From the NCBI GenBank assembly GCA_965228695.1, contig CBDDIB010000002.1, positions 1,497,089 to 1,561,088 on the forward strand: 64,000 nucleotides of DNA, in the 5' to 3' direction. The notes beneath the pieces were generated by a model. The model saw only the letters and a program-made list of their open reading frames with translations, was not told where the DNA came from and searched no databases. The translations under genes and the position numbers were made by a program. Of this stretch, positions 3,490-59,095 are shown piece after piece (within the stretch, counting starts at the first letter, position 1; each line of letters begins with the position of its first letter). This stretch comes from Alphaproteobacteria bacterium (GTDB taxonomy: Bacteria > Pseudomonadota > Alphaproteobacteria > UBA8366).

Positions 3490-3566
3490 GGCAACCGATT
3501 GGCGCTGTTGGCGCTGCGGCAAGTCGGGTAGTATCGCGCCGGAATACCCCTGCCGGAGAGTTGTAT

Positions 3567-6277: not shown

Positions 6278-6369
6278 GTCGGGCCGATCGGGAAGCGGGC
6301 CGCCGCGATGGTGATTGCGACCGAACGTCTTGCCGTGCGTCGCGTTCGCCTCTATGTTTCCGCCGCCGT

Positions 6370-21551: not shown

Positions 21552-21631
21552 CCGGAAGCGGCAGTCCGGAACTATCGGCTTGTGCTTTCAAAGCGTCCGC
21601 GATAGGTGATGCCGCATATTCGAGAGGAAGC

Positions 21632-22948
21632 ATGACGGAACAGACTGCAGGCAGCCTTATGTCGCTGGCCCGCGACTATCACGAATCGGGCCGGGTTCTG
21701 GACGCGGAACGGCTGTACAACCAAATCGTCGAGGAGGATTCCGGCAACGCGGAGGCGTGGTATTATCTCGGCGTTCTGCTGTTTCAGACCGGCCGAAAAC
21801 GGGACGCCATCGCGGCATTAGAGAACGCCGACGCCGCGCAGCCCGGTCATCCCGATATCCTCTCTAGCCTCGGCAGCGTTTGTGGTGACATTGGCGATTA
21901 TGAGACGTCGATCGCTGTCCTTCGGCGAGCCATCAAGGCATCGCCGCAGGATGTTACGCCGTACGAACGGCTTGGCATGACGCTGCTGGCGACGCGCCGA
22001 TTCGAGGAAGCGATCCCGGTCTATCAGCGGCTCAACGACTTGTTGCCGGAAGCGGGCGGCGGGTGGTTCAACCTGGGCCGCGTCTATGAAGGGCTGGGCC
22101 GCTACGAGGATGCGATCGACGCGTTTCGCGAGGCCCTGGCACGCAAGCCTCACTTCACCGAAGCCTATACCGGGATTGCCGCGGCGTCGCTGGACCTGGA
22201 CCGCCCGGCGGAAGCGATCGACGCCTGCGAACGGTGTTTCCGGATACTGCCGGGCGACACCAGCGCCATCGCCTATAAGGCGGTCGCCCTGGATGCCTTG
22301 GGGGATCGCGCGGCGGCGGCCGAACTAATCGATTTCGACCGGTTCCTGCGGGTCGGGCGGATCGAACCGCCGTCGGGATTCGACAGTATTGACGCCTTTA
22401 ACACGGCGCTGATCGACCATATTGATACTCACCCTTCGCTCAGTTTCGATCTGGAGGCGATCTCCTGTCACAACGGTGCGACGAGCGACAATCTGCTGGC
22501 CGAGCCGAAAGGACCGGTCGCCCATCTCGAGACAGCGCTCGTCCGCGCGTTCGACGGATATCTCCGGGGCATCGATCCGGCGCAGGAACATCCGTTCGTC
22601 GACGGCGCGCCGGAAAATTGGCGAATCGAAATGTGGGCGACCGTGTTGGAGCGGCAGGGCCATCAGTCGGCCCATATCCATCCGACCGGCTGGCTAAGCG
22701 GCGTTTACTACGTCCAGGTGCCCGAGGTGGTGAACGAAGGCGATTCGGGTCATAGCGGATGGATCGAATTCGGCAATCCGCCCGATCATTTCCCCGCGCC
22801 GAAGCGGCCGGGTCTTCGTTATCACAAGCCGGAACCGGGAATGTTCTTGTTGTTCCCGTCCTATGTCTATCACCGGACCGTCCCGTTCGATTCGGATACC
22901 CGGCGGATCAGCATCGCCTTCGATTTCGAGCCCTTGTGGGGCGGCTGA
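21632..22948 (+). CDS. TPR repeat :: putative 2OG-Fe(II) oxygenase (PF13759/TIGR02466-like) fusion
   Basis: ATG 21632 follows GAGAGGAAG. TPRs, e.g. AEAWYYLGVLLFQTGRKRDAIAALENA. C-terminal HIHPTGWLSGVYYVQVP...GWIEFGNP...GMFLLFPSYVYHRTVPF...RISIAFDF. Confidence 0.7.
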   Translation: MTEQTAGSLMSLARDYHESGRVLDAERLYNQIVEEDSGNAEAWYYLGVLLFQTGRKRDAIAALENADAAQPGHPDILSSLGSVCGDIGDYETSIAVLRRAIKASPQDVTPYERLGMTLLATRRFEEAIPVYQRLNDLLPEAGGGWFNLGRVYEGLGRYEDAIDAFREALARKPHFTEAYTGIAAASLDLDRPAEAIDACERCFRILPGDTSAIAYKAVALDALGDRAAAAELIDFDRFLRVGRIEPPSGFDSIDAFNTALIDHIDTHPSLSFDLEAISCHNGATSDNLLAEPKGPVAHLETALVRAFDGYLRGIDPAQEHPFVDGAPENWRIEMWATVLERQGHQSAHIHPTGWLSGVYYVQVPEVVNEGDSGHSGWIEFGNPPDHFPAPKRPGLRYHKPEPGMFLLFPSYVYHRTVPFDSDTRRISIAFDFEPLWGG

Positions 22949-24440: not shown

Positions 24441-24475
24441 TGTGGTTTGCGACGCAGTGTGGCAATTGCGACGGA
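24441..24475 (+). promoter_or_regulatory. tandem direct repeat TGTGG-N1-TTGCGACG / TGTGG-N3-TTGCGACG in the conserved porin leader (copy 1)
   Basis: TGTGG at 24441 and 24458. TTGCGACG at 24447-24454 and 24466-24473. Conserved base for base in copy 2. Confidence 0.4.
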
Positions 24476-24536
24476 AGGACAGGGCGGTTCGATTTGTTTT
24501 TGGGGAGTTTGCAAGTTTATCAGTGTGGAGGTTTTC

Positions 24537-25733
24537 ATGACCAAGTTAAACAAAGCGTTGATGGCCACGACCGCCATTGCCTTTGCATCCGGTCTGGCTC
24601 TTCCGGCATCCGCTCAGGATCCGTCGAAAGCGCCAGGCGTCGTCAAGAGCAACGACAAAATTAAGCTTCGGCTGTACGGGCAGATCACCCGTCAGTTCGG
24701 TTTCGTCAACGACGGCGAGTCGACTACGTTCAAGCAAGGTCCGAACGGCAACACCTCGACCCGCATGGGCATCGACGGCCGCGGCAAGGTGACGAAGGAT
24801 GTCAACATCCGGACTCGCCTCGAATTCGCCCTAAATACCGGCAACAGCACGGGTGGTCCGCAGTTCGAGAACCAGCCCGGTTCGAACGACTTCGACATCC
24901 GCCATCTGGACGTGATCTTCAGCCACAAGAAGGCTGGCGCGATCTGGATCGGCCGCGGCGACTCCGCCACCAACGGCACGTCGGAAGTTAACCTGGCGCC
25001 GGGTATGAGCACCGGTCGTTTGGGTGGTTCGACCCATCACGCCGCCAGCGAATTCCGCTTGATGGACGAGGACGATAGTATTGAGCCGCAGCAGGTCGGC
25101 ACGATCGATCGTTTCTTCTCCAACTTCGATGGCGCGGGCCGGCAAAACCGTATTCGCTACGACACGCCGACCCTCTTCGGCTTCAAGGCGTCGGCCAGCA
25201 TCATCGACAAGCACAACTTCGATGCGGCCCTGCGCTACAGCGGCAAGATCGCGGGTACGGCGATCAAGAGCGCCGTCGGTTATTGTAACACCCAGGGTGC
25301 CCGTTCGTCCGGTGACGGCTCGTGCTTCGGTAACGGCGGCACGATTCGCGGCCAATCGACGGTCAACGGCTCGGTTTCGGTCAAGACTCCGATCGGTCTC
25401 GGCGCGACCTTCTCGGGCGCCAAGCAGTGGCAGAATACGTCCCCGACGACGGTGAACGAAGGCGATCCGTACAACATCCAGCCTTCGATCTGGTACACCA
25501 CGAAGGTTACCGAGCTTGGCGCGACGACTGCCGAATACGCCTTCCAGTACTGCAAGCATTGCGGTCTGAAAGACGACAAGGGCATCGGCCATGCCGTGAC
25601 CATCCTTCAGAAGGTCGATAGCACGGGTGGTGACTACTTTGCCACGTTCCGTCTGTATGATGTGGAGACGGCCACGAACGACAATATCGAGAACCTGTGG
25701 TTCGTCGGTGCCGGCTTCCGCCAACGCTTCTAG
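24537..25733 (+). CDS. outer-membrane porin, paralogue 1
   Basis: ATG 24537 follows GTGGAGG. Signal peptide MTKLNKALMATTAIAFASGLALPASA/QD. Alternating beta-strand-like pattern. C-terminal GAGFRQRF with terminal Phe. Confidence 0.8.
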   Translation: MTKLNKALMATTAIAFASGLALPASAQDPSKAPGVVKSNDKIKLRLYGQITRQFGFVNDGESTTFKQGPNGNTSTRMGIDGRGKVTKDVNIRTRLEFALNTGNSTGGPQFENQPGSNDFDIRHLDVIFSHKKAGAIWIGRGDSATNGTSEVNLAPGMSTGRLGGSTHHAASEFRLMDEDDSIEPQQVGTIDRFFSNFDGAGRQNRIRYDTPTLFGFKASASIIDKHNFDAALRYSGKIAGTAIKSAVGYCNTQGARSSGDGSCFGNGGTIRGQSTVNGSVSVKTPIGLGATFSGAKQWQNTSPTTVNEGDPYNIQPSIWYTTKVTELGATTAEYAFQYCKHCGLKDDKGIGHAVTILQKVDSTGGDYFATFRLYDVETATNDNIENLWFVGAGFRQRF

Positions 25734-26305: not shown

Positions 26306-26340
26306 TGTGGTTTGCGACGCAGTGTGGCAATTGCGACGGA
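26306..26340 (+). promoter_or_regulatory. tandem direct repeat TGTGG/TTGCGACG in the conserved porin leader (copy 2)
   Basis: TTGCGACG at 26312-26319 and 26331-26338, the same arrangement as copy 1. Confidence 0.4.
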
Positions 26341-26401
26341 AGGACAGGGCGGTTCAAGTTGTTTTTGGGGAGTTTGCAAGTTTATCAGTGTGGAGGTTTT
26401 C

Positions 26402-27601
26402 ATGACCAAGTTAAACAAAGCGTTGATGGCAACAACCGCCATTGCCTTTGCGTCTGGTCTGGCTCTTCCGGCATCCGCTCAGGATCCGTCGAAAGCGCCG
26501 GGCGTCGTTAAAAGCGGCAACAAAATGAAAATTAAGCTGTACGGGCAGATCACCCGTCAGTTCGGTTTCGTCAACGACGGCGAAGCTTATACGTTCAAGC
26601 AAGGCTCGAACGCCAACACCTCGAACCGTATGGGCATCGATGGTCGCGGCAAGATCACGAAGGACGTCAATGTCCGGACCCGCCTCGAATTCGCCATTAA
26701 TCCCGGTGATTCGCATGGTGGTGAGCAGTTCAGCAATGCACCGGGTTCGAACGACTTCGACATCCGCCATCTGGACGTGATCTTCAGCCATAAGAAGGCT
26801 GGCGCGGTCTGGATCGGCCGTGGCGACTCGGCCACCAACGGCACGTCGGAAGTTAACCTGGCACCGGGTATCGGTACTGGTCGTCTGGGCGGTTCCGTCC
26901 ATCATGCCATCAACGAATTCCGTTTGATGGACAAGAATGACGGCCTCGCGGCTCAGTCGGTTGGCACGGTTAACCGCTTCTTCAACAGCTTTGACGGCGC
27001 AGGCCGGGTGAACCGTATTCGTTACGACACGCCCTCCTTCTTCGGTTTCAAGGCTTCGGCCAGCATCATCGACAAGCACAACTTCGACGCAGCCCTGCGC
27101 TATAGCGGCAAGATCGCCGGTACGGCCATCAAGGCCGCGGCGGGCTTCTGCGAAAGTAAGGGTGCTTCGAACTCGAATGACGGCGCGTGCTTCGGCAACG
27201 GCGGCACCATCGAAGGTGTTGCCAATGTCAACGGCTCGATCTCGGTCAAGACCCCGATCGGCCTGGGCGCCACCTTCTCGGGTGCCAAGCGCTGGCAGAA
27301 TCGTGCCGGTGTTGCCCATTCGACCGAAGGCGATCCGTACAACATTCAGCCTTCGATCTGGTACACCACGAAGGTTACCGAGCTTGGCGCGACGACTGCC
27401 GAATACGCCTTCCAGTACTGCAAACATTGCGGTCTGAAAGACGACAAGGGCATCGGCCATGCCGTGACCATTGCGCAGAAAGTCGATAGCACCGGTGGTG
27501 ACTACTACGCGACCTTCCGTCTCGTAGACGTCGAAACGGCCACGAACGACAATATCGAGAATTTGTGGTTCATCGGCGCTGGCTTCCGCCAACGCTTCTA
27601 G
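26402..27601 (+). CDS. outer-membrane porin, paralogue 2
   Basis: Signal peptide identical to paralogue 1 and identical C-terminal GAGFRQRF. One residue longer. Confidence 0.8.
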   Translation: MTKLNKALMATTAIAFASGLALPASAQDPSKAPGVVKSGNKMKIKLYGQITRQFGFVNDGEAYTFKQGSNANTSNRMGIDGRGKITKDVNVRTRLEFAINPGDSHGGEQFSNAPGSNDFDIRHLDVIFSHKKAGAVWIGRGDSATNGTSEVNLAPGIGTGRLGGSVHHAINEFRLMDKNDGLAAQSVGTVNRFFNSFDGAGRVNRIRYDTPSFFGFKASASIIDKHNFDAALRYSGKIAGTAIKAAAGFCESKGASNSNDGACFGNGGTIEGVANVNGSISVKTPIGLGATFSGAKRWQNRAGVAHSTEGDPYNIQPSIWYTTKVTELGATTAEYAFQYCKHCGLKDDKGIGHAVTIAQKVDSTGGDYYATFRLVDVETATNDNIENLWFIGAGFRQRF

Positions 27602-48109: not shown

Positions 48110-49111
48110 TTACTCCGCGGCGTGCGCGTGCGCGCCGTCCGATCGTGGTTTATTCAAGAGCGTCAGCCGCCACATCTCGCGCGGATAGCGGTCGTACTCG
48201 AACCCGGTCGCCGCATGGATCGTGCAGCGGTTGTCCCAGGCCACGATGTCGCCCGGCTGCCAGCACCACTTCACCGTAAATTCCGGCCCGGTCACGTAGG
48301 GCAGCATGTCGCGCCAGACGCGGACGCTGTCATGCTCGACGCCTTCCAGATCGCAGGTGTCCAGATCGTCGCCGGCAAAATCCTGTCCCTTCGGCAGCAC
48401 GGCGCAGGTCGAGCTGTTCAATCCGTAGAGCGCGGGCTCGCCGCTGACCGGATGCTTCAGCACGACCGGCACGCGCCGGGGCGGGTTGGCCGCCCGCTGT
48501 TCGGGTGTCAGGACCGGATAGTCCGGCGAGTAGAGATTGATCTTCTTGTCATGATGCGCGAGCGAGCAGATCGCTTCCATGCCGGCCAGTTCGCGCTTCT
48601 TCGACTCGCCCAACCGCGCGTAGGCACCGCGCGTATCCGCGAACAGCGTTTCGCCGCCCTGCGGGGGCGCTTGCCGGCAGTGGAAGACCGAGCCGATCGG
48701 GGGATTTTCCCGGAAAGTGGAATCGGTATGCCAGACAGGGCGGCGGGTCTCCGGGTTGTAGCGAATGTCGTCATCGCTGGTCAGCGCCGGAACCTTGGCG
48801 AATTGGGCCGTCCGTTTTCCGGAATCATCCTTGAGGTTGCCGATGCGCAGGATCGGATATCCCGTCACCATCTTGTCTTCGCGGGCCGACAGGCTTTGAT
48901 TCTCGACCGCGCCGAAGACGGCGGACCAGGCCACAAGTTCGTCGGGCGCGGTATTCGTCAAATCCTCGCCGCGCACGGCCAGCAAGCCGCCGTGCCGGGT
49001 CCAGAGGTCGAAGGCGTCGCGCTGAAAAGCCGCGTCGGCCAGATCGGATCGGGTGACGCCCTCGATCATGATGCCGAATTCGCCGTTCAAGGTAGAGGTC
49101 TTGTGTTCCAT
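48110..49111 (-). CDS. TauD/TfdA family Fe(II)/2OG dioxygenase
   Basis: ATG 49111 (MEHKTSTLNGEFG...). WHTDSTF, RCTIHAATGF-type C-terminus. Confidence 0.8.
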   Translation of the reverse strand: MEHKTSTLNGEFGIMIEGVTRSDLADAAFQRDAFDLWTRHGGLLAVRGEDLTNTAPDELVAWSAVFGAVENQSLSAREDKMVTGYPILRIGNLKDDSGKRTAQFAKVPALTSDDDIRYNPETRRPVWHTDSTFRENPPIGSVFHCRQAPPQGGETLFADTRGAYARLGESKKRELAGMEAICSLAHHDKKINLYSPDYPVLTPEQRAANPPRRVPVVLKHPVSGEPALYGLNSSTCAVLPKGQDFAGDDLDTCDLEGVEHDSVRVWRDMLPYVTGPEFTVKWCWQPGDIVAWDNRCTIHAATGFEYDRYPREMWRLTLLNKPRSDGAHAHAAE

Positions 49112-49209
49112 GGGTTTCGCTCGGTTCGTTGGAGTTTTTGCCGGGAGGAGTGATTTGATGTGCGCCGTTATAAAAATAGCGCAACGCGATGCGCTGGCAA
49201 CAGGCCTCG

Positions 49210-49995
49210 TCAATTGTCACGGCAAACGGTTGTTTCCGATTCCGCGGCCTCCAGCTCAATCAGCTTCTCCAATTGCTCGCGCGTGATCGCGCCTTCCACA
49301 ATCGTGCGGCCGACGACGAAAGAGGGCGTGCCGGTGAAACCGAGCTGCTTGGCGATTTGGTCGTTTCGGCGCAGGACCGTGCCGATTTCCGCCGATTTCA
49401 TGTCGCGCAGCAGTCGGTTACCGTCGATGCCGACATCCTTTGCGACGAGCCGGAAGATGCCCTCGGTCGGTATGCCGCGCGTCTTCATTAGGGTCTCGTG
49501 GAAACGCACATATTGGTCTTGCCGCGCGGCCGCCAATGCCGCGCGCGCCGCCCGGTCGGACGCCGGACCGAGAATGGGCCATTCCTTGTAGACGACACGC
49601 AGGCGCGGATCCTTCGCTTGGATGTCGCCGAGATACGCGGAAACGACCCGGCAATAGGGGCACTGATAATCGAAGAACTCGACGATCGTCACCGCGGCGT
49701 CGGCCGGGCCGGCCGCCGGATCGTCAGGGTCATTGAACAGCGCGGCGCAGATATCGGTGACCGGTTCCGTATTCCGCCGCTCGGCCCCGAATTCGACGCC
49801 GGTCAGCGGCACGGCCGCCGGGCCCGGGCGTGACGTGCCGCCGGACAGGACCAGTTCGCGGAACCCTTCGGGCTGCTCCCGCGGCTGGAATTCGAGATCG
49901 TCGGCCGACCGGTGCGAAATGAATATATTGACCGCGATCAGGGCCGCGGCGGCGACGAGCAGAATTCTGTAGTTTTGCGGAATGCGCAGTTTCAT
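49210..49995 (-). CDS. DsbA-family thiol:disulfide oxidoreductase, membrane anchored
   Basis: N-terminal TM ILLVAAAALIAVNIFI. Thioredoxin-fold active site FDYQCPYC. Confidence 0.85.
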   Translation of the reverse strand: MKLRIPQNYRILLVAAAALIAVNIFISHRSADDLEFQPREQPEGFRELVLSGGTSRPGPAAVPLTGVEFGAERRNTEPVTDICAALFNDPDDPAAGPADAAVTIVEFFDYQCPYCRVVSAYLGDIQAKDPRLRVVYKEWPILGPASDRAARAALAAARQDQYVRFHETLMKTRGIPTEGIFRLVAKDVGIDGNRLLRDMKSAEIGTVLRRNDQIAKQLGFTGTPSFVVGRTIVEGAITREQLEKLIELEAAESETTVCRDN

Positions 49996-50104
49996 GCCTT
50001 TTGGATGCCACAGCCGGGCGGCCCATGCACCACAATCGTTGGTGATTTGTTGTTTCGAGCGCTATCGCAAAGAGACCGGGTCAATCAATTCGCCCTAGAG
50101 TCCC

Positions 50105-51364
50105 TTACGTCCGTGTTTTCGCGATCGCCGCCGCGACCTTGCCCCGGTGGGTCAGGCGGCCGAACACGGGCAGCCCCGATATCCGCCAGAACAGGCGTTG
50201 CGTCACATAGACCGCGGGCCGATGGATGTAGCAGATCGGGACCAGGGGCTTGGCGCGGGGACCGAAGCGGTAAAGCAGGAAATCGCTCGACGGCAGGAAT
50301 AGAAAGCGGAGTAGTGTCCGATGACCTTGCCTGCTGCGCATTCTGTCTCGCCAAATCTCGCGAAAGGTAGTGACACCGCCGACCGCGCCGGATAATGCGG
50401 CTTCGATCGCTTTGCGGTTCGTCCAGCGGGGGCTTGTGTCGAATGTGGTCAATACGTGCTCGGGCACCGGCGCATCCAGGCATTCGGTCAGGTACCGCAG
50501 CATCGTATCGACGGGAAGGTCGAGCCGGCTGTCCCTCACGATTCGGCTGAATTCGGGCCAGTCGATGCCGGGGTTCCCGTCGATCAATAGCTTGGCGTCG
50601 CAGGCCCAACGCAGATGCCCGCGCGTCCGTTCGTGGAAGGCGGCGGTCAGGATGTAGATCAAGTGATGGGTCGGCGACGGGATGCGCACCGGAACGCCCG
50701 CAATCTCGGCGGGCAGGCTGGCCGACCAGAGCGCGGCCGCGTCGTGGTGATAGACCGGTACGTCATACAGCGCCGTATGGACCACGAGCGGCAGCCCGTC
50801 CGTGTGCCGAAACCCCTGCCGGGCACCCGGCGCCGCCTCGGGCAGCCGCGCAGGAACGAATCCGCAGCCGCGCAACGCTTCGCCGGCAGCGGTCAACGCG
50901 TCCGGATGGACGAGCAGGTGCAGCGCATGGCAGTGCCGCTCGACCGGTGATTCGTACACGGTGTCGGCCAAGGCGCCGCCCCGCAGGGCGATGACTGGGA
51001 TATCCGCGCCGGTCGAAGCGGTCAAAATGTCGGCGTGAATTTCGCGGATAACGGTGCTGCGCAATTCCTCGCGGACGGTGGCGACCCGAAGGTAGGACTG
51101 CAGCTCTTTTTCGAGGGTGAAATCGTTGCGCCGCGCCGCGCCGTAGATGACGGGCAGCAAGCCTTTCAGCCCCGTTAGGTCGGTTTCGAAGAATTGCTTC
51201 AGATCGCCGGCGAGCGCCTGGAAGTCGCGCCAAGCGGCCGCCGCCGCATCGGGCGGGCAAAGACACGCCCGCAACAGCAGCGTGCGGAGTCGATCCGGCC
51301 GGACGATGTCCAGCGCAAATCTGACTTCCGCCACTCTCCCATCGGACTCGTCAGGGTTTTGCAT
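50105..51364 (-). CDS. NTP_transf_5-type (uncharacterised nucleotidyltransferase family) protein, paralogue with degenerate DxD motif
   Basis: Collinear with 54785..55927. At the position of RDLDMVV it reads HALHLLV (ALH codons at 50918-50926, checked in the DNA). Overlaps the GT2 stop by 14 nt. Confidence 0.65.
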   Translation of the reverse strand: MQNPDESDGRVAEVRFALDIVRPDRLRTLLLRACLCPPDAAAAAWRDFQALAGDLKQFFETDLTGLKGLLPVIYGAARRNDFTLEKELQSYLRVATVREELRSTVIREIHADILTASTGADIPVIALRGGALADTVYESPVERHCHALHLLVHPDALTAAGEALRGCGFVPARLPEAAPGARQGFRHTDGLPLVVHTALYDVPVYHHDAAALWSASLPAEIAGVPVRIPSPTHHLIYILTAAFHERTRGHLRWACDAKLLIDGNPGIDWPEFSRIVRDSRLDLPVDTMLRYLTECLDAPVPEHVLTTFDTSPRWTNRKAIEAALSGAVGGVTTFREIWRDRMRSRQGHRTLLRFLFLPSSDFLLYRFGPRAKPLVPICYIHRPAVYVTQRLFWRISGLPVFGRLTHRGKVAAAIAKTRT

Positions 51365-52055
51365 TCGTCGCCCGGCGCCGCGCGATCGCCGCTTCCGCCA
51401 GTTTGAGCAAGTCCGTCCGCAGCCCCTCGTCCTGTTGGCGGCTCATGTTGTTCTCGTGAATCCGCCGCCGGACGAGGACCCGGTTCACATGCTCGACCGG
51501 CACGCCCGCCGCCTTGGCATGGAACAGCAGGCCGGCCGTTTCGTCGTTTTGACCGCTATCGGTACTGAACCCGCCGATGCGGTCGATGACGTCCCGGCGC
51601 AGCAGCATCCCCTGCAGGGTGGTCAGGCGTGCGCCGTCATGCTCGGTGCCGCGCAATTGCTCTGCTTCGTGGGCCAGTTCCGCTTCCCAGAAATTCTCGA
51701 TCAGGCAGGTGCAGACCCCCGCGTCCGGTTTGCGGATCAGCCGTTCGACCTGCAACGCCGTCTTTTCCGGCAGCCAAAGATCGTCGGCGTCCTGAAAGGC
51801 GATGATGCTGCCCGTCGCCGCCGCCATCCCTCTGTTCCGGGCCGCCTTTACGCCTGCATTCGGCTGATCGATCACCGTGATGCGGTCGCCATAGCCGTCG
51901 AGGATCGCCTTTGTCCCGTCGGTCGATCCGTCATTCACGACGACGATCTCCATCGGGCCGTAGGCCTGTTGCAGCACGCTCTCGAGGCATTCGGCGATGA
52001 AGCGTTCACCGTTGAACACCGGGATCACGCAACTGACGACGGGAGAAGCTGACAT
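51351..52055 (-). CDS. glycosyltransferase family 2 (GT-A)
   Basis: ATG 52055 (MSASPVVSCVIPVFNGERFI...). VVVNDGSTDGT, FQDADDLW. Confidence 0.85.
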   Translation of the reverse strand: MSASPVVSCVIPVFNGERFIAECLESVLQQAYGPMEIVVVNDGSTDGTKAILDGYGDRITVIDQPNAGVKAARNRGMAAATGSIIAFQDADDLWLPEKTALQVERLIRKPDAGVCTCLIENFWEAELAHEAEQLRGTEHDGARLTTLQGMLLRRDVIDRIGGFSTDSGQNDETAGLLFHAKAAGVPVEHVNRVLVRRRIHENNMSRQQDEGLRTDLLKLAEAAIARRRATNAKP

Positions 52056-52071
52056 AGCGGCCTTGCCTGCC

Positions 52072-52488
52072 TTACGGCTTGAGGTTGGACAGCTCGGGAA
52101 GCGGCGGGTCGAGCGCGAAAAGGTCGACCATGTCGTCGAACTTGTTGAGCTGCGGCGTGGCATAGGCGTCGCCGTCAGGGGCGTTCTCCGGGATGGCCGC
52201 CGTGCTTGCCGCTTCCGCGTCGCTCGGCAACGCCAGCCGTTCCTCGACGAGCTTATCGGCCAGGGTTTCCACATCGGCCGCGGCGACGGACTTTTCGATG
52301 CCGTAGCGATTGGCCACGGCGTCGGCGATCGTATCCAGGTCGTTTCCGTTTTCGATCAACGACCAGATGTAACCGCCCACCAGGTCCATGCTGTAATACA
52401 TGCCGTTGGACAGGTTGATCAGGACCGCTTCGCCGTCGACTTCCTTGGCGGCGACTTCCGCCGTGTTGGGTTTGAGAATTTTCTGCAT
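52072..52488 (-). CDS. PqqD-family protein (RiPP-recognition-element fold) with ~45-aa acidic/Pro-rich C-terminal tail
   Basis: ATG 52488 (MQKILKPNTAEVAAKEVDGEAVLINLSNGMYYSMDLVGGYIWSLIENGNDLDTIADAVANRYG...). The upstream part of track ORF 52072..52623 overlaps GT4 and is discarded. Confidence 0.8.
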   Translation of the reverse strand: MQKILKPNTAEVAAKEVDGEAVLINLSNGMYYSMDLVGGYIWSLIENGNDLDTIADAVANRYGIEKSVAAADVETLADKLVEERLALPSDAEAASTAAIPENAPDGDAYATPQLNKFDDMVDLFALDPPLPELSNLKP

Positions 52489-52525
52489 GGTGCTTCTTTT
52501 TCTGATTGTTGGATCGGTTAATCCA

Positions 52526-53713
52526 TCAAACGGATGGAGAGGATTGGGGTGTCCGTGACATCGTACTTCGCGGGGCGCCGGGTCGAACCGAAGAGTCATC
52601 CAGAACCCGCCGGTAAAGTGCATCGTAGGCGTCCACGTTGGCTTCGATGCCGAACCGTTCTATCGCATCCTTGCGCGCACTTCGGCCGAGCTCGTCGGCG
52701 AGATTGGGCTGCGATAGGAGCCGTTTCAGCCGGTCGGCTAGGGCGAACGGATCCTCTTTGTCGACGAGATATCCGGTCGTGCCGTCGATCACGACTTCCG
52801 CCAGGCCCCCGGTACGGGCCGCGACCACTGGCCGGGCCATGAGGGCGGCCTCGATCGCCACGAGACCGAAAGGTTCGCGCCAGCGGGACGGCACGGCCAT
52901 GACGGTCGACCGGTTGATCAGGTCGAAGACAGAATCCGGGTCGACCCAGCCGGTGAACGTCACCGAATCGCCGAGGCCAAGGACCTTTGCCTGCTCTTCG
53001 AGCACAGCCCGTTCGGGTCCGTCGCCGGCGACTGTAAGCCGAGCCTCCGGAAAGCTCTCCCGGACATCGGCGAACGCCTCGAGGGCGACGTCGAACCCTT
53101 TTTCACGGATAAGCCGGCCGATGCACAGGATGTGCGGCGGTCCGTCCGGCATCGGTGCCGGGTCGGTGCCGCCGACGGTCAGTCCGTTGTGTATGCGGGA
53201 CGATTTGTCCTTTATCGCGGGGAACATCGACCGGATGTCGCCGAGGGTGGCGTCCGATACGGCGGTGACCCATGCCGCCTCGTCGAAGGCGCGGTGGACG
53301 ATGCCGCCCATCCCGCCGGATTCCGAAAAATCCGCGTGGATCGCGACCACGGTGGGGATCGGCGCGCGCCGGTTGCTTTCGAGATGCAGCGCGATGCTGG
53401 GCCCGTAGAGATTTGCATGGATCAGGTCGGGGGCCGCCTCGTTCCGGATCGCGGCTATTTTTCGCCGCAGGCTGATGAAGGCCTCCGGATCGCGGCTGCG
53501 AAGAACGTCGTGAAACGGGAGCCGATGAATGACCGTTCCATCGATGACTTCGTGCTCCGGATAATCGAGCTGTTGGGTCGTCACCACGGTGATGTCGTAG
53601 CCCCGCGTTCTGAGCACGGGGATGACCTGTGCCGCGAGGGTCTCGACACCGCCGATCGTGGGCCAGAAGAATTCGGTCCAATAGAGCAGGCGGATGGATT
53701 TGCCGCTATGCAT
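52526..53713 (-). CDS. glycosyltransferase family 4 (GT-B)
   Basis: ATG 53713 (MHSGKSIRLLYWTEFFWPTIGGVE) overlaps the upstream stop by 8 nt (ATGCATAG). EPFGLVAIEAALMARPVVAARTGGLAEVV. Confidence 0.85.
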   Translation of the reverse strand: MHSGKSIRLLYWTEFFWPTIGGVETLAAQVIPVLRTRGYDITVVTTQQLDYPEHEVIDGTVIHRLPFHDVLRSRDPEAFISLRRKIAAIRNEAAPDLIHANLYGPSIALHLESNRRAPIPTVVAIHADFSESGGMGGIVHRAFDEAAWVTAVSDATLGDIRSMFPAIKDKSSRIHNGLTVGGTDPAPMPDGPPHILCIGRLIREKGFDVALEAFADVRESFPEARLTVAGDGPERAVLEEQAKVLGLGDSVTFTGWVDPDSVFDLINRSTVMAVPSRWREPFGLVAIEAALMARPVVAARTGGLAEVVIDGTTGYLVDKEDPFALADRLKRLLSQPNLADELGRSARKDAIERFGIEANVDAYDALYRRVLDDSSVRPGAPRSTMSRTPQSSPSV

Positions 53714-54788
53714 GACCGGCAACCTCGCGGCTGATCCGCCGGACGGTGGGGCCGATGTCGCCGACGTTATGGCCAAGCTCCAACCAGAAGGCCGGCACCG
53801 TGGTTACCATGTCGCCGAGTTTGTCCAGCGATCGCGGCGCCGCGCCGGGTAGGATGATGATCGAACTTGGCGCGAGGGCGAGCATGGCTTCCATCGGTTT
53901 CGCCGACCGGTAGGTCGTCTGGGGTTGGTCGACGACCCTCGGCAGTATGACCGCGGAGATCGGCGTTTCCTTGGCAAAGCGCCCGCCCGGGTGATCCCGC
54001 AGATACGCGACCGACTTGTGCTCGATTTCGTGGTTTGGCTTGTGCGCGATCGCGGCGAGCGCGGGGAACCGGCTGATATGGTCATTGGCGATCAAGCAGG
54101 TCGCGTAGAGCGAATGACCGGTCAGTCCGCCATCCTTGCGCTGTGCCAGGGCGACAAAATCGTCGCTCAGGAAATCGAAACCTTCCAGGAAGCTGGCGAC
54201 AGACGATGTGCTCTTGCCGGATCCGCCGCTGCCGACGAAAAGGAGGCCTTGGTTTTCGGCGATCGCCAGGGCGGCGTGGATGAATTGTACGTCGTGATCG
54301 TCCAGCCAGATCGATAGCAGGCGATGGAAGGGCCGTGCCCGTTCGTCGAGAAACAACAGGGACCGGCTCCGGACGCAACCGGTGATCCGGTCCGCTTTCC
54401 GGTCCAGCAGCATGACCGCCGATTCACGCTGGTGCAGAACGTGCCGACCGTCGGGAGTTACGGCGACGTTGCCATAGAAATCGACCTCTTCGGGCCAGCG
54501 GGTCCAAAAAGCCGGTCCGGCGGCTTCCTCGTCCCAGACCTCGACCGTCAGGGCGGGGTCAACGCCATCCTGCGCACGCAAATGGCACATCGACCGGTCG
54601 ATGTCCGCCGCGAGGTCGTTGCCGACAATGCGCAGGCGGACCGGAAATCCCGCGATTCGATAATCCATTTCGACGATCGGGTTCGACGCCCGGCCGGCCA
54701 GGCTGGTGAAAGTGCCGCCCAATTTATCGATCGCGTCGGCGATGTCGATTTCCGGGGCCGGCACGGCGGTGACGCTATCGGTACTCAT
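53706..54788 (-). CDS. HPr-kinase-related P-loop kinase-like protein
   Basis: ATG 54788 overlaps the upstream stop (ATGA). Walker-A-like GSGGSGKST (54207-54233, checked in the DNA), followed by FLSDDF. The N-terminal 180 aa of the track ORF 53706..55340 are an alternative-frame read through the upstream gene. Confidence 0.7.
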   Translation of the reverse strand: MSTDSVTAVPAPEIDIADAIDKLGGTFTSLAGRASNPIVEMDYRIAGFPVRLRIVGNDLAADIDRSMCHLRAQDGVDPALTVEVWDEEAAGPAFWTRWPEEVDFYGNVAVTPDGRHVLHQRESAVMLLDRKADRITGCVRSRSLLFLDERARPFHRLLSIWLDDHDVQFIHAALAIAENQGLLFVGSGGSGKSTSSVASFLEGFDFLSDDFVALAQRKDGGLTGHSLYATCLIANDHISRFPALAAIAHKPNHEIEHKSVAYLRDHPGGRFAKETPISAVILPRVVDQPQTTYRSAKPMEAMLALAPSSIIILPGAAPRSLDKLGDMVTTVPAFWLELGHNVGDIGPTVRRISREVAGHA

Positions 54789-55927
54789 TGCATCGACTGC
54801 CCATACTTCGACAGCGATTCCCGGAAGCCGCCCCGGTGCTGGCGCATGACATTGAAAATGTGTTTGGCACGGTGCGCCTGCATGCTCAGCCCGCGCGTGC
54901 CGCAGCCGTATGTCAGGTCGAGGTGATGCGGTTTCAGCGGGGCGGTGACACCGGCGATCCAACGCGCAATATAGGTCAGGCGCGGCGAGTTCTGTTGGAA
55001 CAAGCAGTGTTTCAGATGGAAACGGGCGCTCAAAGTGTTCGTATTCAAATCCTCGGGAACCGGTGCGCCCAGCAATTCGCGAACCAACAGGAGGCGCGCC
55101 CGGAAGGCCCGGCCCATGCCGTGGTCCTGCAGATGCGCGGCGATGGACCGCCAGTCCAGCGTGTCTTCGTATCGGACGCAAATCGCCGCCAGATCGATAA
55201 GTTGGCGCAGACAGACTTCGCCGAGCAGGTATCCCGTGTCCTGAATTTCGGAGTTGAAGATATTGTGCAGGACGCGATGTTCGGGCGACAGCGCAACCAT
55301 GTTGAGACCCTCGACATCGACCCGAACCGCGTGTGCCCATGCCGCCTCAGCGTTGATGAAATGGCGTTGTTCGCCGGCCTGAATATGAAGCTCGACCGGG
55401 ACCATCCGGTCTTTACGGTGAAGCGGGCGGTAGTGATAGGTCCAGCGCTCCTCGGCGTCCCTGGGTTCGTAGCCGGCTTTCTCCATGACGCCGACACAGG
55501 CATCGAGGGCGTCGAGCGGCACGACCATATCCAGGTCGCGCAGGACCCGACCGCCAATACCGTCCGCCGGCGTTTCGAAGAGGAAGAGACCGCCCTTCAG
55601 GATCATCGGCGTGCACGCCACCGAATTGAGCAGCCCGACGACTTCCTCGGCTTCGCTCTTGATCCTCTCGTTGATTTCCTGGCCCATGAAATACCGGCGG
55701 CGCAGCGCCTGTTGCGCCGTTTTAGGAAGGTCGTCGCATAGACCGCGCCGGCGCAATGCAACCGCAAACGCCCCGGTCACATGCTCCTGATCGGCGAGTC
55801 GAAGCAGACGGGACCAATCCAAGTCGCGGGCGGCAAGGTCCGCCGCCAACGCGGCGCTATCCTCATCGGTCGGTGCGACGTTCAACGCACGGGTAATGAT
55901 GGAAAACGTGTGGCGAAAACCGGTCAT
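54785..55927 (-). CDS. NTP_transf_5-type nucleotidyltransferase-fold protein (DxD motif intact)
   Basis: ILKGGLFLFE...GGRVLRDLDMVVP (DLD codons at 55529-55537, checked). An upstream in-frame stop at 55946-55948 fixes the ATG at 55927. Confidence 0.7.
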   Translation of the reverse strand: MTGFRHTFSIITRALNVAPTDEDSAALAADLAARDLDWSRLLRLADQEHVTGAFAVALRRRGLCDDLPKTAQQALRRRYFMGQEINERIKSEAEEVVGLLNSVACTPMILKGGLFLFETPADGIGGRVLRDLDMVVPLDALDACVGVMEKAGYEPRDAEERWTYHYRPLHRKDRMVPVELHIQAGEQRHFINAEAAWAHAVRVDVEGLNMVALSPEHRVLHNIFNSEIQDTGYLLGEVCLRQLIDLAAICVRYEDTLDWRSIAAHLQDHGMGRAFRARLLLVRELLGAPVPEDLNTNTLSARFHLKHCLFQQNSPRLTYIARWIAGVTAPLKPHHLDLTYGCGTRGLSMQAHRAKHIFNVMRQHRGGFRESLSKYGQSMQ

Positions 55928-56200
55928 GATCGGAACGTCGATCCATTATGTGATGCGCGTTGTTTTCCAAATTGCTACGAGCGAAGTTGGGATACGGGAA
56001 AATCGGATAAAATTCTGATTCCTCGGGATATTTCGCGCAGCATTCGAAGGAATACCCGCAATGGTAGGCGATGGCCGCTATACCGGTCTATCGGCCACAA
56101 TGAGTATCCCTTTCAGTCAACGCCGGCGTACTAAATGACTGCCCACAAAGGTATCCCAGATTTTCGAGTGAATTGGGCTCGTTGGTTTCCAGAGGGCGAA

Positions 56201-57832
56201 TCAGTCCCTGTTCAGAAGCCGAAGTCGAAACCCCGGATTCGGTGCCCAATGAAAGCGATTGTGTTCCGGCGGTCCATCCTCGACGGCTTCGAGATCGTAG
56301 CCTTTCGCCAGCGCGGCAAGGAGGGTGCAGGCGATCTCGTGGGTCAATCTGTCGCCGACGCACATGTGCCGGAAAAGACCGAAGGGCGCATATTCGATAT
56401 GTGAAAACTTTCGACCAATGAACCGGTCTGGATCAAACTTCGCGGGATTTTCAAAGGTCCGGGAATCCTGATGTCCGTCTCTGATGCAAATTCGAATCAG
56501 CCAGCCCTTGGGGATGACATAGTCGCCGAACTCGAGGTCGCGTAGGGCTTTCCGATGCAGATATTCGCTCTGTTCGAGCCGTAATGTCTCGCTGACGATG
56601 CGGTCCGCCAAGGAGCGTAAACGCTGCGGACGGGATGCCCGGTTCCGCAGATGCTGCATCCATTCGGGGTGATCGCTTAGATGTTTGAGGACCCACATGA
56701 GCAGTCCCCCCACATCGTTGCACCCGGATTCCAGCATGAAAATAAGGTTGCCGAGAATGGTGGGGTCATCGAACTTGGCCGGGTCGGCCCGGCTGATTTC
56801 GGCAAGCAGGGAGCGCGAACGGTCGAATTCCGCGCGATCGCGCCGTGCTTCCTCGAGTATGAAATCCGTCAGTCGGCCGAGATTTTCCTGCGCCTTCTTC
56901 TGCGACGATCGCAGCATAAGGCGCGGAATGTTCACCTGTTGATAGAGCAGTTGCAGCTTTTCGAAAGCAGCACCATCGGGCCGGATACCCAGCAATACCT
57001 GCGCAAGTATCGCAAACAGCATTTGATCCAGATACTGCCGGGGTTTGACGCCGCCCGCCGACCCCAATTCGGCGTCGGCCGCCATCCGGGACAGCGTCCT
57101 TGCGGCCGCGGCTTCGGTCGGCGCGGAGCAGCCTTCCAGAAATTCTGGCGTGAACGCCGTCCGGAAAAGGTGATTGTAGACCTGATGGTCCTCCTGATTC
57201 ATGTAGCGCAGAAAGCCTCTCGGAAACAGGAGACTGAAAGGGGCGGGCGGCCACAGCTGCAACCTACTGTCGTGCCGGCGCAGGAGGTCGAGGCCCGCCT
57301 TATGGCCGACGACGCACACGGTCGGGCGCAGCGACGGGCATGGCAATGTGGACCCCACCTTGAAAATCGGGCCGTACCGTTCGGCCTGCCGCTGATAAAA
57401 GCGGTGGTCCAAATATGGATCCCAGGGCAGGATTTCGAATTTTCCCGGCAAGGCCTGCTTTCCCCGGCGGGACCCGAGCCACATCCAACAGAAAAAGCCG
57501 AAGGCCGCGAGAAGGCCGAGTATGGCTAGGATGCGAAGGAGCGTCGGCGCGAAGACGGCAATCGTGACGACCAGGAAGGAATAGATGGCAAGCAGCCCTG
57601 CCAGGGCAACGGCCTTCTTGCTCCCCTGGTGCCGAAAGGGCCGAAACATCGCCAATCGCCACGCAGGCCAGGGAAGCGCTAAGAGAATCCCGGCTTCGAT
57701 GAGCCGTTCGAAAAGGTTGGCCGCGGCATCCATTTGATATCCTATCCGCGAATATTGGTGATCAACAGCCAACGAAGTCCAGTCGCCCGCGAGTGCTAAC
57801 CCGGAAACCTGCGAGGGGTGTAATTGGGACAT
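56201..57832 (-). CDS. cytochrome P450 with N-terminal multi-helix membrane domain
   Basis: Heme-thiolate loop FGLFRHMCVG (Cys codon 56360-56362, checked). EXXR as ETLRLE. N-terminal hydrophobic segments AGILLALPWPAW and AVALAGLLAIYSFLVVTIAVFAPTLLRILAILGLLAAFGFFCWMWLG. Confidence 0.85.
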   Translation of the reverse strand: MSQLHPSQVSGLALAGDWTSLAVDHQYSRIGYQMDAAANLFERLIEAGILLALPWPAWRLAMFRPFRHQGSKKAVALAGLLAIYSFLVVTIAVFAPTLLRILAILGLLAAFGFFCWMWLGSRRGKQALPGKFEILPWDPYLDHRFYQRQAERYGPIFKVGSTLPCPSLRPTVCVVGHKAGLDLLRRHDSRLQLWPPAPFSLLFPRGFLRYMNQEDHQVYNHLFRTAFTPEFLEGCSAPTEAAAARTLSRMAADAELGSAGGVKPRQYLDQMLFAILAQVLLGIRPDGAAFEKLQLLYQQVNIPRLMLRSSQKKAQENLGRLTDFILEEARRDRAEFDRSRSLLAEISRADPAKFDDPTILGNLIFMLESGCNDVGGLLMWVLKHLSDHPEWMQHLRNRASRPQRLRSLADRIVSETLRLEQSEYLHRKALRDLEFGDYVIPKGWLIRICIRDGHQDSRTFENPAKFDPDRFIGRKFSHIEYAPFGLFRHMCVGDRLTHEIACTLLAALAKGYDLEAVEDGPPEHNRFHWAPNPGFRLRLLNRD

Positions 57833-57938
57833 TTCCCGCTCTTATGGCGATTTTCGGATATCGTGGTATTTCACTTCCCCGAGCCCATGGCGTACCCTTT
57901 GACCGGCTGGTTCGAACCCACCGACCGAGGAGCGCCGC

Positions 57939-58364
57939 ATGGAACCGCTGTTTCATCTTTCCATTCCCGTCGACGATCTGGACCGCGCGAAGACGTTCTA
58001 TATCGATACGCTGGGCTGCACGGTCGGACGTGAGACGCGGGGCCGGTTCGATATCAATTTCTTCGGGCACCACATCGTGGCGCATCTCTCGCCGCGGGAG
58101 GCGGCGAAGGCCAACGGCACCATCCCGTCCGACGGCGCGACCGCGCCGCTGCGCCATTTCGGCGTGATCCTGCCGCTGGACGATTGGAAGGATATGGAAC
58201 GCCGGCTGACCGATCGGAACGTCGCATTCTTGCTGTCGCCGCGCCTGTCCTTTTCGGGAAAACCGGCGGAGCAGCACATCATGATGCTGCCCGACGGCTG
58301 CGGTAACGTCGTCGAGTTCAAGTCCCAGCCCCGTGACCGCGTGTTCGCGACGGACGCGCCGTAA
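57939..58364 (+). CDS. VOC (glyoxalase/bleomycin-resistance/dioxygenase) family protein
   Basis: LFHLSIPVDDLDRAKTFYIDTLGC...HFGVILP...VVEFKS. Confidence 0.7.
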   Translation: MEPLFHLSIPVDDLDRAKTFYIDTLGCTVGRETRGRFDINFFGHHIVAHLSPREAAKANGTIPSDGATAPLRHFGVILPLDDWKDMERRLTDRNVAFLLSPRLSFSGKPAEQHIMMLPDGCGNVVEFKSQPRDRVFATDAP

Positions 58365-58388
58365 AGTCTCCGTCGATTGAGCAGAATG

Positions 58389-58940
58389 CTAGAGTAAACC
58401 CTTGAGCCTAAGGAGCCCGAAGGCGGCAACGGTCGTGGCATCCTTGATCTTGCCGTCGCAAATCATGCTTTCCAGCGTACTCATTTCGAAGGTTCGGGAG
58501 ATAAGGTCTTGTTCCTCCGGCTCCGGGGCGGGCGCATTCTGTTGCAGACCAGTGGCCAAGAACACATGGTAGCCCTGTGTGGCGTAGCCGTAGCCCTGGA
58601 ACAAATGCCCCCCATAGATCAAATCCGATGCTTCGAGGCCAGTCTCTTCCCGCAACTCTTGGCGGGCCGTTTCTAAAGGATCGCTCTCGGGCGCTGCTTC
58701 CCACGAGCCCTGCGGCATTTCCCAATAGCGTGCTCTGACTGGGTATCGAAATTGCTGAACAAGGTGAATTCGACCATCGGTTTCGACTGGGGCAATAGCG
58801 ACAAAATCCGGTTTCTCAACGACGCCATAAATGCCATCAGAGCCGTCCGGGCGTCGGATTTGATCCTCACGTACCCGCATCCATCGGTTTTCGTAGGCCA
58901 CGCGCGATTCGATCGTCTCAATATCCGGAACATCAATCAC
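58389..58940 (-). CDS. NUDIX hydrolase (ADP-ribose pyrophosphatase-like)
   Basis: GTG start follows GGGAGA. Nudix box GSWEAAPESDPLETARQELREETGL. Confidence 0.85.
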   Translation of the reverse strand: MIDVPDIETIESRVAYENRWMRVREDQIRRPDGSDGIYGVVEKPDFVAIAPVETDGRIHLVQQFRYPVRARYWEMPQGSWEAAPESDPLETARQELREETGLEASDLIYGGHLFQGYGYATQGYHVFLATGLQQNAPAPEPEEQDLISRTFEMSTLESMICDGKIKDATTVAAFGLLRLKGLL

Positions 58941-59095
58941 CCTGCATTCTCCCTAGCGGCGTATTCTCCAAGTTCTTGCGAGGATCATAGATTGGTTCTG
59001 AGACTCGGTTGAATCTCGTTTGAGATGACCGATGACCCCGGCAATTTTACAGTCTGCTGCTTCTTCAAATCCTGGACGCAAAATTGACATCCGTG

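Follow-up and report, generated by a model that had tools for sequence, protein, structure and literature searches.

What do peptide-tailoring enzymes act on when no peptide is encoded beside them? The question is raised by a locus on the minus strand of a 64-kb stretch of alphaproteobacterial DNA (from contig CBDDIB010000002.1; the whole stretch is called the window hereafter), where a listing of open reading frames (ORFs) places seven genes at positions 50105-57832. Six of them make up a cassette encoding a PqqD-family protein, a P-loop kinase, two nucleotidyltransferase-fold proteins of family PF14907 and two glycosyltransferases (GTs), and the seventh encodes a cytochrome P450. A preliminary description of the locus had given the substrate as unknown. 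Our answer is that the peptide partner that is apparently missing appears, from the sequence, to be the PqqD protein's own C-terminus, which carries a YxxPxL motif and a conserved segment behind it.

The PqqD protein (52072-52488, minus strand, 138 aa; PF05402, E = 4e-15, 56.4 bits against a gathering threshold of 23.4) has three parts. Residues 1-90 (52219..52488) form a PqqD-family recognition domain of the lasso B1 type, that is, a RiPP recognition element (RRE; RiPP, ribosomally synthesised and post-translationally modified peptide), as judged by PF05402, NCBIfam, an AlphaFold2 (AF2) model and Foldseek. Residues 91-106 (52171..52218) are a variable, low-complexity linker, delimited by alignments and AF2, and residues 107-138 (52075..52170) are a conserved C-terminal tail, DAYATPQLNKFDDMVDLFALDPPLPELSNLKP, delimited by alignments, a tail profile and AF2. 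The best family matches of the protein in NCBIfam are lasso B1 chaperones, the first being lasso_PqqD_Bac with 52.9 bits against a cutoff of 80. The AF2 model has a predicted local distance difference test score (pLDDT) of 81.5 overall and 84-94 in the recognition domain, and the top Foldseek matches are TbiB1 with its leader (5v1v/5v1u) and a further B1 (6jx3), at TM scores of 0.84-0.92 normalised to the target, with 0.88-0.92 for TbiB1; both were solved with bound leader. Modelled strands at 4-7, 12-17, 20-25 and 30-34 are followed by three helices and a last strand at 86-89, an order that agrees with the β1-β5/α1-α3 topology described for LppB and PbaB1 (PMC13381572) and with the winged-helix PqqD fold. 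The domain is thus of the kind that recognises lasso leaders, but the YxxPxL motif lies on the same polypeptide.

How well is this tail conserved? In an alignment of PqqD proteins from 22 loci, a domain of ∼90 residues is followed by a variable low-complexity linker and then by a C-terminal segment that is conserved above the domain itself. The linker is poorly conserved both in these 22 sequences and in a larger set of 120 homologues. In the larger set, 113 of the 120 carry the tail motif Y-x-x-P-x-L-x-x-[FY]-x-D-M-x-[DE]-[LM]-[FL]-A-L-D-P-P-[LM]-P-x-L, which has nine invariant positions (Y, P, D, M, A, D, P, P and P) and is followed by 5-26 variable residues. In the tail encoded in the window, YxxPxL (Y109, P112 and L114) comes first, then a short helix with the sequence DMVDLFAL and then D127-P128-P129, all three invariant. 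Codon differences between the window and a related locus (L009) point the same way: 12 synonymous and 3 non-synonymous in the tail, compared with 34 and 36 in the recognition domain and 2 and 12 in the linker. Judged by these sequences, the tail is under stronger purifying selection than the domain that precedes it.

A profile built from the tail alone finds 368 proteins at E ≤ 0.001 among 1.84 billion cluster representatives, all 368 being representatives at 50% identity. In these matches the motif always lies 9-26 residues from the C-terminus, and the long matches are proteins of ∼140 aa. A distant clade carries the variant [FY]xxPxLxx[FY][ST]D[ML]QDLLL[LT]DP[IV]H[DE]V..GWP, and the leader Tyr is replaced by Phe in one distant clade. 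Scans of four isolated tails against Pfam and NCBIfam at E ≤ 10 returned no family, and the tail matched no chain in the PDB. Two kinds of candidate for a free precursor were set aside. A 52-aa stand-alone tail peptide (P0223), found in a word-indexed search, proved to be an artefact of a run of Ns in a scaffold inside a PqqD gene, and the short tail-profile proteins that were inspected are fragments retaining the last helix of the domain, or frameshift chimeras. There is no evidence for a free-standing precursor among the short matches inspected, which were not all of them.

The motif is one that such domains are known to bind. YxxPxL stands at -17 to -12 of lasso leaders (PMC10368454), and [Y/W]xxPx[L/V/I/F/A] is the motif bound by the discrete recognition domains of systems for lasso peptides and for linear polyphosphorylated peptides (LPP), LppB included (PMC13381572). 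In the AF2 model, pLDDT rises from 59-64 in the preceding linker block to 88 over residues 111-120 and drops to 61 and 51 in the two blocks that follow. According to DSSP, the three residues after L114, 115-117, are in a strand and residues 120-124 in a helix. In the crystal structure of PbaB1 with PbaA, the three residues following the motif Leu pair with β4 (PMC13381572), so a strand placed directly after L114 is in the register expected of a bound leader. Helix 3 of the recognition domain contains a near-invariant D72, which may correspond to D70 of LppB, the residue that forms a hydrogen bond with the leader Tyr (PMC13381572). Of five sequences in which Phe or Trp stands in place of the tail Tyr, four have Ser or Ala in column 72, while among 201 sequences that keep the Tyr the column departs from Asp in eight, several of them chimeric. 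From motif identity, the register of the modelled strand and this covariation pattern, we consider it reasonably likely that the tail engages the recognition domain.

Whether the cassette as a whole is a unit was addressed through its neighbourhoods, which were collected by exact look-up and by a scan of one genome per species (using a 7-sequence kinase alignment; 23 loci), and whose proteins were compared with those of the window by phmmer. Homologues of the kinase detectable in the protein collection number 102. Among Alpha- and Gammaproteobacteria, about 20 distinct and complete loci carry the same six-gene set, which comprises the kinase, a PqqD protein of 136-168 aa, two kinds of PF14907 protein (types A and B) and one to three glycosyltransferases, with the kinase ranging from 90% down to 39% identity to that of the window. 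The alphaproteobacterial hosts include Rhodospirillaceae, and the gammaproteobacterial ones are Pseudomonadales, Steroidobacteraceae, Arenicellales and Methylococcaceae. GT2 genes, one to three of them, are present in every complete locus, and in the clade of the window a GT4 gene sits in the slot that a second GT2 gene fills in most other loci. Many gammaproteobacterial loci additionally encode an SMP-30/gluconolactonase-like protein, an NAD-dependent epimerase and an HD-domain protein (hydrolase). Truncated loci with parts of the cassette occur in Geminicoccaceae and Gemmatimonadota, the gemmatimonadotal locus (L017) having four of the six genes. In more distant relatives, whose kinases are 25-30% identical to that of the window, a tailed PqqD protein, the kinase and a glycosyltransferase are retained, as is PF14907 in all of them except L034.

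The recurrence of these six genes together far exceeds chance, and the cassette is almost certainly a functional unit. The preliminary description had taken the locus for a non-lasso pathway, which is borne out: the set is a conserved unit and not the remains of a lasso cluster. It had also proposed looking in the neighbourhoods for conservation of six or seven genes and for a small ORF that varies with them; the six-gene set is indeed conserved, but neither the P450 nor any small ORF is. All-against-all clustering of ORFs of at least 30 aa from 18 divergent loci gave no further shared family and no conserved small ORF.

Some observations on individual loci are recorded here in their own right. 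The order in L017 is PF14907, kinase, tailed PqqD protein and PF14907, followed by an epimerase and a Wzx-like Polysacc_synt_3 flippase (4832-6298), and there is no glycosyltransferase within the available part of the contig. In L029 (6655-12204), from a gammaproteobacterial metagenome-assembled genome, each cassette gene is broken into two or three ORFs, which reflects either a pseudogenised copy or indel errors of long-read assembly. Some distant relatives have a sulfotransferase or an ABC transporter nearby. The tailed genes of the distant clade lie at 9530-9997 in L030, 9569-9994 in L031, 7582-8040 in L033 and 2190-2621 in L035; this variant-tail clade adjoins ABC transporters, with the sulfotransferase in L030, and may export a processed product.

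Given the kinship of these proteins with lasso biosynthesis, one could suppose that the locus is an ordinary lasso cluster in decay, now without its cyclase, protease and precursor. Paeninodin, pseudomycoidin and Bsf clusters do indeed contain recognition domains, kinases and nucleotidyltransferases of these types. Neither the window ORFs of at least 500 aa nor the Pfam-annotated relatives include an Asn-synthase-like cyclase. No transglutaminase-like B2 protease is found in the Pfam-annotated relatives or among the conserved families, the small ORFs of the window not having been scanned for B2 with hidden Markov models, and no signal peptidase or any other peptidase is found in the Pfam-annotated loci or conserved families. 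As to the hallmarks of a lasso precursor, which is separately encoded and has Thr/Ile at -2 and a Gly/Ala-1...Asp/Glu-7-9 core, there is no conserved small ORF, and the tail has neither Gx5T spacing nor a ring-forming core. The window cassette and most loci are without a transporter, ABC transporters being found only beside some of the distant relatives. Decay is, however, difficult to reconcile with a cyclase-less set that is intact across phyla, with kinases 39-90% identical and overlapping start and stop codons, or with strong purifying selection on the tail, and no relative examined has the cyclase or the B2 protease. We regard a decayed lasso cluster as extremely improbable.

Turning to the enzymes, the kinase (53706..54788, minus strand, 360 aa) is a P-loop protein of the HprK/PEPCK-like superfamily. 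By sequence the call is weak: TIGR04352 (HprK-related kinase A) matches with E = 7e-9 and 35.1 bits against a cutoff of 200, relatives scoring 30-42 bits, and the Pfam family Hpr_kinase_C with E = 0.005 and 16.9 bits, under its gathering score of 33.3. The assignment was settled by a family profile against the PDB and by the predicted fold. A profile of 18 homologues has HPr kinase/phosphorylase chains as its top matches (E = 3.5e-5), over a span that includes the hHGxxh...GxSGxGKS...DD signature. The AF2 model (pLDDT 90.7) matches phosphoenolpyruvate (PEP) carboxykinases best in Foldseek, over both domains, with E = 2e-9 and a TM score of ∼0.5 normalised to the query; the PEP carboxykinase fold superfamily includes the HprK catalytic domain. 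A GxGGSGKST Walker A motif, a DD motif and His171 are invariant, the invariant residues including G186, G191, K192 and D209, and on this conservation the kinase is probably active. We also observe that the whole kinase, including its N-terminal β-rich domain, superposes best on PEP carboxykinases and not on HprK/P alone. The substrate of PEP carboxykinase is a carboxylate-bearing small molecule, and the resemblance may bear on what the kinase phosphorylates.

The two PF14907 proteins score 122.2 and 107.8 bits against a gathering threshold of 31.2. Type A (54785..55927, 380 aa; Pfam NTP_transf_5, E = 3e-35) and type B (50105..51364, 419 aa; E = 9e-31), both on the minus strand, were compared in an alignment of 42 paralogue sequences. 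All type A proteins have the canonical metal-binding motif G-G...D-x-D with [RN]x[FL]xD[LM]D and a downstream acidic residue, the region reading RDLDMVV in the window. In pseudomycoidin biosynthesis PsmN is needed to place a hexose on phospho-Ser, and its D134 and D136 are essential (PMC6993621); we equate the DxD of type A with these two residues by motif, and type A is presumed from its sequence to be catalytically active. None of the 20 type B sequences retains the first catalytic Asp (RH[NSC]H[AG]I[DEH]L), and in the clade of the window the second is lost as well (RHCHALHLLV), so that type B is probably either a pseudo-enzyme partner or an enzyme with altered chemistry. Several loci show a 4-nt overlap between the genes of the two types.

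The glycosyltransferases of the window are a GT4 enzyme of GT-B fold (52526..53713, minus strand, 395 aa; Glycos_transf_1, E = 1e-42; Glyco_transf_4, E = 1e-18) and a soluble GT2 enzyme of GT-A fold (51351..52055, minus strand, 234 aa; Glycos_transf_2, E = 7e-35). A distant relative, P0095 (601 aa, L035 6364-8169), is a natural fusion of GT2 and kinase, which argues that phosphorylation and glycosylation are coupled. Its gene is flanked by two PF14907 genes and an ABC transporter.

The junctions between the cassette genes are close, as befits a translationally coupled set. Read on the reverse complement, the stop of the type A gene and the start of the kinase gene overlap in ATGA (54785-54788), the kinase and GT4 genes overlap in ATGCATAG (53706-53713), and the GT2 and type B genes overlap by 14 nt, ATGCAAAACCCTGA (51351-51364); the intergenic gaps are 37 nt from GT4 to PqqD and 16 nt from PqqD to GT2. 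The ORFs and junctions agree exactly with the seven minus-strand genes, coordinates, overlaps and gaps given in the preliminary description, and its domain identities are confirmed by Pfam and NCBIfam profiles and, for the kinase, by the PDB profile and the fold. Megablast of the 8-kb region against plasmids gave no match. A reading as a defence system is unsupported, none of the seven proteins matching a PADLOC defence model.

Does the P450 belong to the pathway? The preliminary description had all seven genes in one pathway, the membrane-bound P450 possibly oxidising the phospho-glycosylated peptide or protein. The enzyme (56201..57832, minus strand, 543 aa, membrane-anchored, with the haem motif FGLFRHMCVG; Pfam p450, E = 4e-25) is encoded on the same strand as the cassette and 273 nt upstream of it, it is also present in L008, and its best NCBIfam match is a RiPP P450, ApyO, which might recommend the idea, but at 79 bits that match is far under the cutoff of 525. 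Comparison of close relatives tells otherwise. The P450 gene is present in the window and in L008 only (kinase 86% identical) and absent from L001 and L007, the kinases of which are 89-90% identical to that of the window. By blastn, window 56151..49000 aligns continuously with L001, L007 and L008, while L001 and L007 have ∼60 bp in place of window 56152-57895, between flanks that align continuously, a clean insertion or deletion of 1.7 kb. No P450 was found at any of the distant loci. Immediately upstream of the first cassette gene, 224 bp (55928..56151) are conserved in this synteny with or without the P450, and this non-coding stretch is the probable promoter region of the cassette; a scan for consensus promoters and terminators was uninformative, doing no better than on shuffled sequence. 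On this comparison of sequences the P450 is a strain-variable neighbour, accessory or unrelated, and not a component of the cassette, and a single seven-gene pathway seems to us very unlikely. A NUDIX gene (58389-58940, minus strand) is a second clean insertion or deletion relative to L001 and L007 (window 58362-59087), and shares with the P450 gene a strain-variable zone just upstream of the cassette.

Our preferred reading, which we hold to be evenly balanced between right and wrong as a complete mechanism, is that the six genes derive from the module that tailors phosphorylated lasso peptides and LPPs, as a cytoplasmic offshoot without a cyclase in which the recognition protein carries its own peptide. 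First, the YxxPxL segment would fold back into the leader groove of the recognition domain, or pair between molecules; occupation of the groove is inferred from the identity of the motif, the AF2 strand in the right register and the one covariation pattern. Second, docking would present the following conserved helix and DPP[LM]P segment to the enzymes, by analogy with the LPP leader, whose C-terminal half does not touch the recognition domain and has been suggested to interact with the modifying enzymes (PMC13381572). Third, the kinase, type A (probably paired with type B) and the GT2 and GT4 enzymes would build a phosphate-linked sugar on or near the tail, by analogy with PsmK and PsmN acting on pseudomycoidin and with LppK. 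The product would be a modified cytoplasmic protein and not a secreted peptide, since the core has no protease, exporter or membrane protein.

Several points weigh against this reading. With respect to docking, the modelled strand at 115-117, as read from per-residue confidence and DSSP, would imply a pairing partner but does not prove that the partner is β4; AF2 cannot separate docking of the tail in cis from docking in trans; and the Tyr/Asp covariation rests essentially on one clade, with few independent events. In BsfA, triple Ala substitution at the YxxPxL residues did not abolish phosphorylation (PMC10368454), which indicates that such kinases do not always require leader docking; on the favourable side, BsfB1 accelerates BsfK (PMC10368454). 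With respect to the acceptor, the tail has no invariant Ser or Thr, and after the motif 14 of the 113 tails lack both; LppK accepts only Ser, the S3T and S3Y variants remaining unphosphorylated (PMC13381572). The tail is also conserved far beyond what is usual for RiPP cores, and a docking or regulatory motif fits such conservation at least equally well. Finally, all of the cassette loci derive from metagenome-assembled genomes. A conserved Ser/Thr acceptor was among the candidates that we rejected, there being none that is invariant and the [DST] position before DM being mostly Asp or Arg. That the tail itself is the modified substrate, a proposal made by analogy, we therefore regard as plausible but leaning towards the doubtful.

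The strongest rival takes the tail to be a built-in leader that keeps the domain folded and permanently loaded, or a docking helix for the kinase and the PF14907 pair, or both, while the enzymes, constitutively activated, would act in trans on a leaderless acceptor from another locus, be it a protein or a small molecule; alternatively the tail would be a pseudo-substrate lid. This rival explains extreme conservation without an invariant Ser or Thr. LppB is insoluble without its leader and PbaB1 becomes fully folded only on leader binding, so a leader in cis would be stabilising, and the proposed contact of the C-terminal half of the LPP leader with the enzymes, not with the recognition domain, speaks for it too. 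Leader peptides fused in cis are known to activate lanthipeptide and cyanobactin enzymes in engineered constructs. Yet no candidate trans substrate co-occurs in any locus in the ORF clustering of 18 loci, the cassette contains no further recognition module, and a permanently filled leader groove leaves no obvious means of peptide selection. On balance we give a trans substrate a real though clearly minor chance.

Returning to a tail that is itself modified, an acceptor other than Ser or Thr can be considered. If residues are counted from the leader Tyr as 1, with the numbering of the respective papers, the phosphorylated Ser falls at 19 in LppA (Y-16 to S3) and at 20 in BsfA (Y-17 to S3); at these two positions the tail has the invariant D127 and P128, respectively. 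D127 could occupy the acceptor site, either as an acyl-phosphate substrate or as a phospho-mimic, and the spacing could equally be coincidence. Taken to its end, the PqqD protein would be a natural fusion of a recognition domain and its precursor and thereby its own substrate, with the kinase phosphorylating the Asp carboxylate of LDPP and the acyl-phosphate being captured or extended by the PF14907 pair and the glycosyltransferases. Phosphorylation of a carboxylate is conceivable because such kinases already add phosphate onto phosphate, making pyrophospho-Ser. We consider this version of events unlikely; were it true, a protein that resembles a RiPP but targets itself and is not secreted would bear a kind of modification not known in proteins before.

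There remains a reading without any peptide substrate, in which the cassette belongs to glycoconjugate or polysaccharide metabolism and makes or remodels a phospho-sugar, nucleotide-sugar or glycolipid, with the PqqD protein as scaffold only. Glycosyltransferases are always present; the gammaproteobacterial loci add the epimerase, SMP-30/gluconolactonase-like and HD-domain proteins; a UDP-glucose dehydrogenase adjoins the cassette of L002, and that of L017 is followed by its epimerase and flippase; over both domains the kinase fold is akin to PEP carboxykinase, a small-molecule kinase; and LPP clusters, too, sit in capsule loci (PMC13381572). However, unrelated housekeeping genes flank the cassette in the window and in most loci. 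Membrane proteins of any kind are missing from the core, as are a polyprenyl-phosphate transferase, a polymerase and a flippase, and no role in sugar metabolism is known for a recognition domain of lasso type that comes with an invariant leader motif. A purely sugar-directed function is improbable in our view.

Elsewhere in the window, two tandem paralogues on the plus strand (24447-25733 and 26312-27601; 428 and 429 aa, 84% identical) occupy its sole low-GC patch (GC 0.555-0.56, compared with ∼0.63). Each has an N-terminal signal-like segment and ends in ...GFRQRF; neither matches a Pfam family at 1e-5, and from these features they look like outer-membrane porins. Rfam ruled out that ribosomal RNA accounts for the low GC content at 24-28 kb. 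Four large tetratricopeptide-repeat (TPR) proteins are encoded at 3441-5408, 9018-10778, 10806-12581 and 21533-22948, one of them fused to a 2-oxoglutarate-Fe(II) oxygenase domain; two adjacent ones among the four, of ∼590 aa, had by size been candidates for ABC exporters. An operon of the BatA/DUF4159 aerotolerance type lies around 28-34 kb.

If the tail is what it appears to be, the consequences reach beyond this locus. PqqD-type RREs are treated as adaptors for separately encoded leaders, and an adaptor carrying its own leader motif would change how clusters are mined, given that a search for a small precursor ORF would always fail for this family. Phosphate-and-sugar tailoring, so far a matter of Bacillota and a few other lineages, would be extended to Alpha- and Gammaproteobacteria and Gemmatimonadota, and the chemistry would move from secreted peptides to what is apparently intracellular protein modification. 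The family would also be a natural counterpart of engineered leader-in-cis enzymes. As a small system of six soluble proteins with a candidate substrate built in, the cassette makes the transfer chemistry of PF14907 directly testable.

How, then, does the cassette compare with systems already known? Two curated neighbourhoods, HPr-rel-A (TIGR04352 with its PqqD partner) and SynChlorMet ScmC/ScmD, which we take to be without known substrate, likewise pair a PqqD-family protein with an HprK-like P-loop protein, and some kinase homologues are tagged PF27840 ‘ScmC’ in precomputed Pfam, weakly or faintly. The preliminary description had drawn a link to HPr-rel-A. It is not upheld by the scores, which are 35 against a cutoff of 200 for TIGR04352, 26 against 200 for TIGR04355 and 18 against 100 for ScmD, or by the best matches of the PqqD protein, which are lasso B1 chaperones; the HPr-rel-A PqqD model is absent from that protein's six NCBIfam matches at E ≤ 0.01, its presence in the release being unconfirmed. 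On these sequence comparisons the cassette is a family separate from both.

Closer are the phosphorylated lasso systems of paeninodin, pseudomycoidin and Bsf (PMC8498205, PMC6993621, PMC10368454), which share with the cassette a B1 domain, an HprK-like kinase, a PF14907-type nucleotidyltransferase and YxxPxL; the kinship to this module that the preliminary description had proposed is borne out by these shared protein types. The cassette differs from them in having no macrolactam synthetase, B2 protease, ABC exporter or separate precursor and no conserved Ser acceptor, and in having dedicated GT2 and GT4 enzymes. Engineered leader-in-cis RiPP enzymes, made by joining the leader to a lanthipeptide synthetase or to a cyanobactin heterocyclase, resemble it in tethering the leader to its binder in a constitutively loaded state, but are laboratory constructs, whereas the fusion here is natural, ancient and family-wide.

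The closest relative is the LPP family of Bacillota, published in May 2026 (Popov et al., Nat Commun 2026; PMC13381572), and on its account the pathway type cannot be called undescribed, as the preliminary description had it: a cyclase-less combination of recognition element, HprK-like kinase and nucleotidyltransferase is already known there. Going by the published descriptions of LppB, LppK and LppN, we find that both systems are without a cyclase and have a discrete lasso-type recognition domain, an HprK-like kinase, a nucleotidyltransferase and a YxxPx[VL] motif. LPP clusters are reported as restricted to Bacillota, often within capsule loci and surrounded by glycosyltransferases, with Ser3 of the core as acceptor and LppS, a signal peptidase I of archaeal type, as the marker that defines the family (PMC13381572). 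They have an MsbA-like exporter and a precursor with an N-terminal YxxPxVLxHQxIxFETxxS, whereas in our cassette there is no LppS-type signal peptidase I, exporter or separate precursor, and the motif lies at the C-terminus of the PqqD protein and diverges after YxxPxL. The position of the LppA phospho-Ser3, 19th from the Tyr, is an invariant Asp here; two PF14907 paralogues, one of them degenerate, and the glycosyltransferases are core members; and the hosts are Proteobacteria and Gemmatimonadota. A natural fusion of recognition domain and leader motif, or this gene set, is not described in the literature that we searched, the coverage of which was incomplete. Our conclusion from this set of comparisons is that the type of pathway is known, and that what is new is an adaptor and its leader on one chain, a pairing of active and degenerate PF14907 proteins, glycosyltransferases in the core, the lack of processing and export, and the range of hosts.

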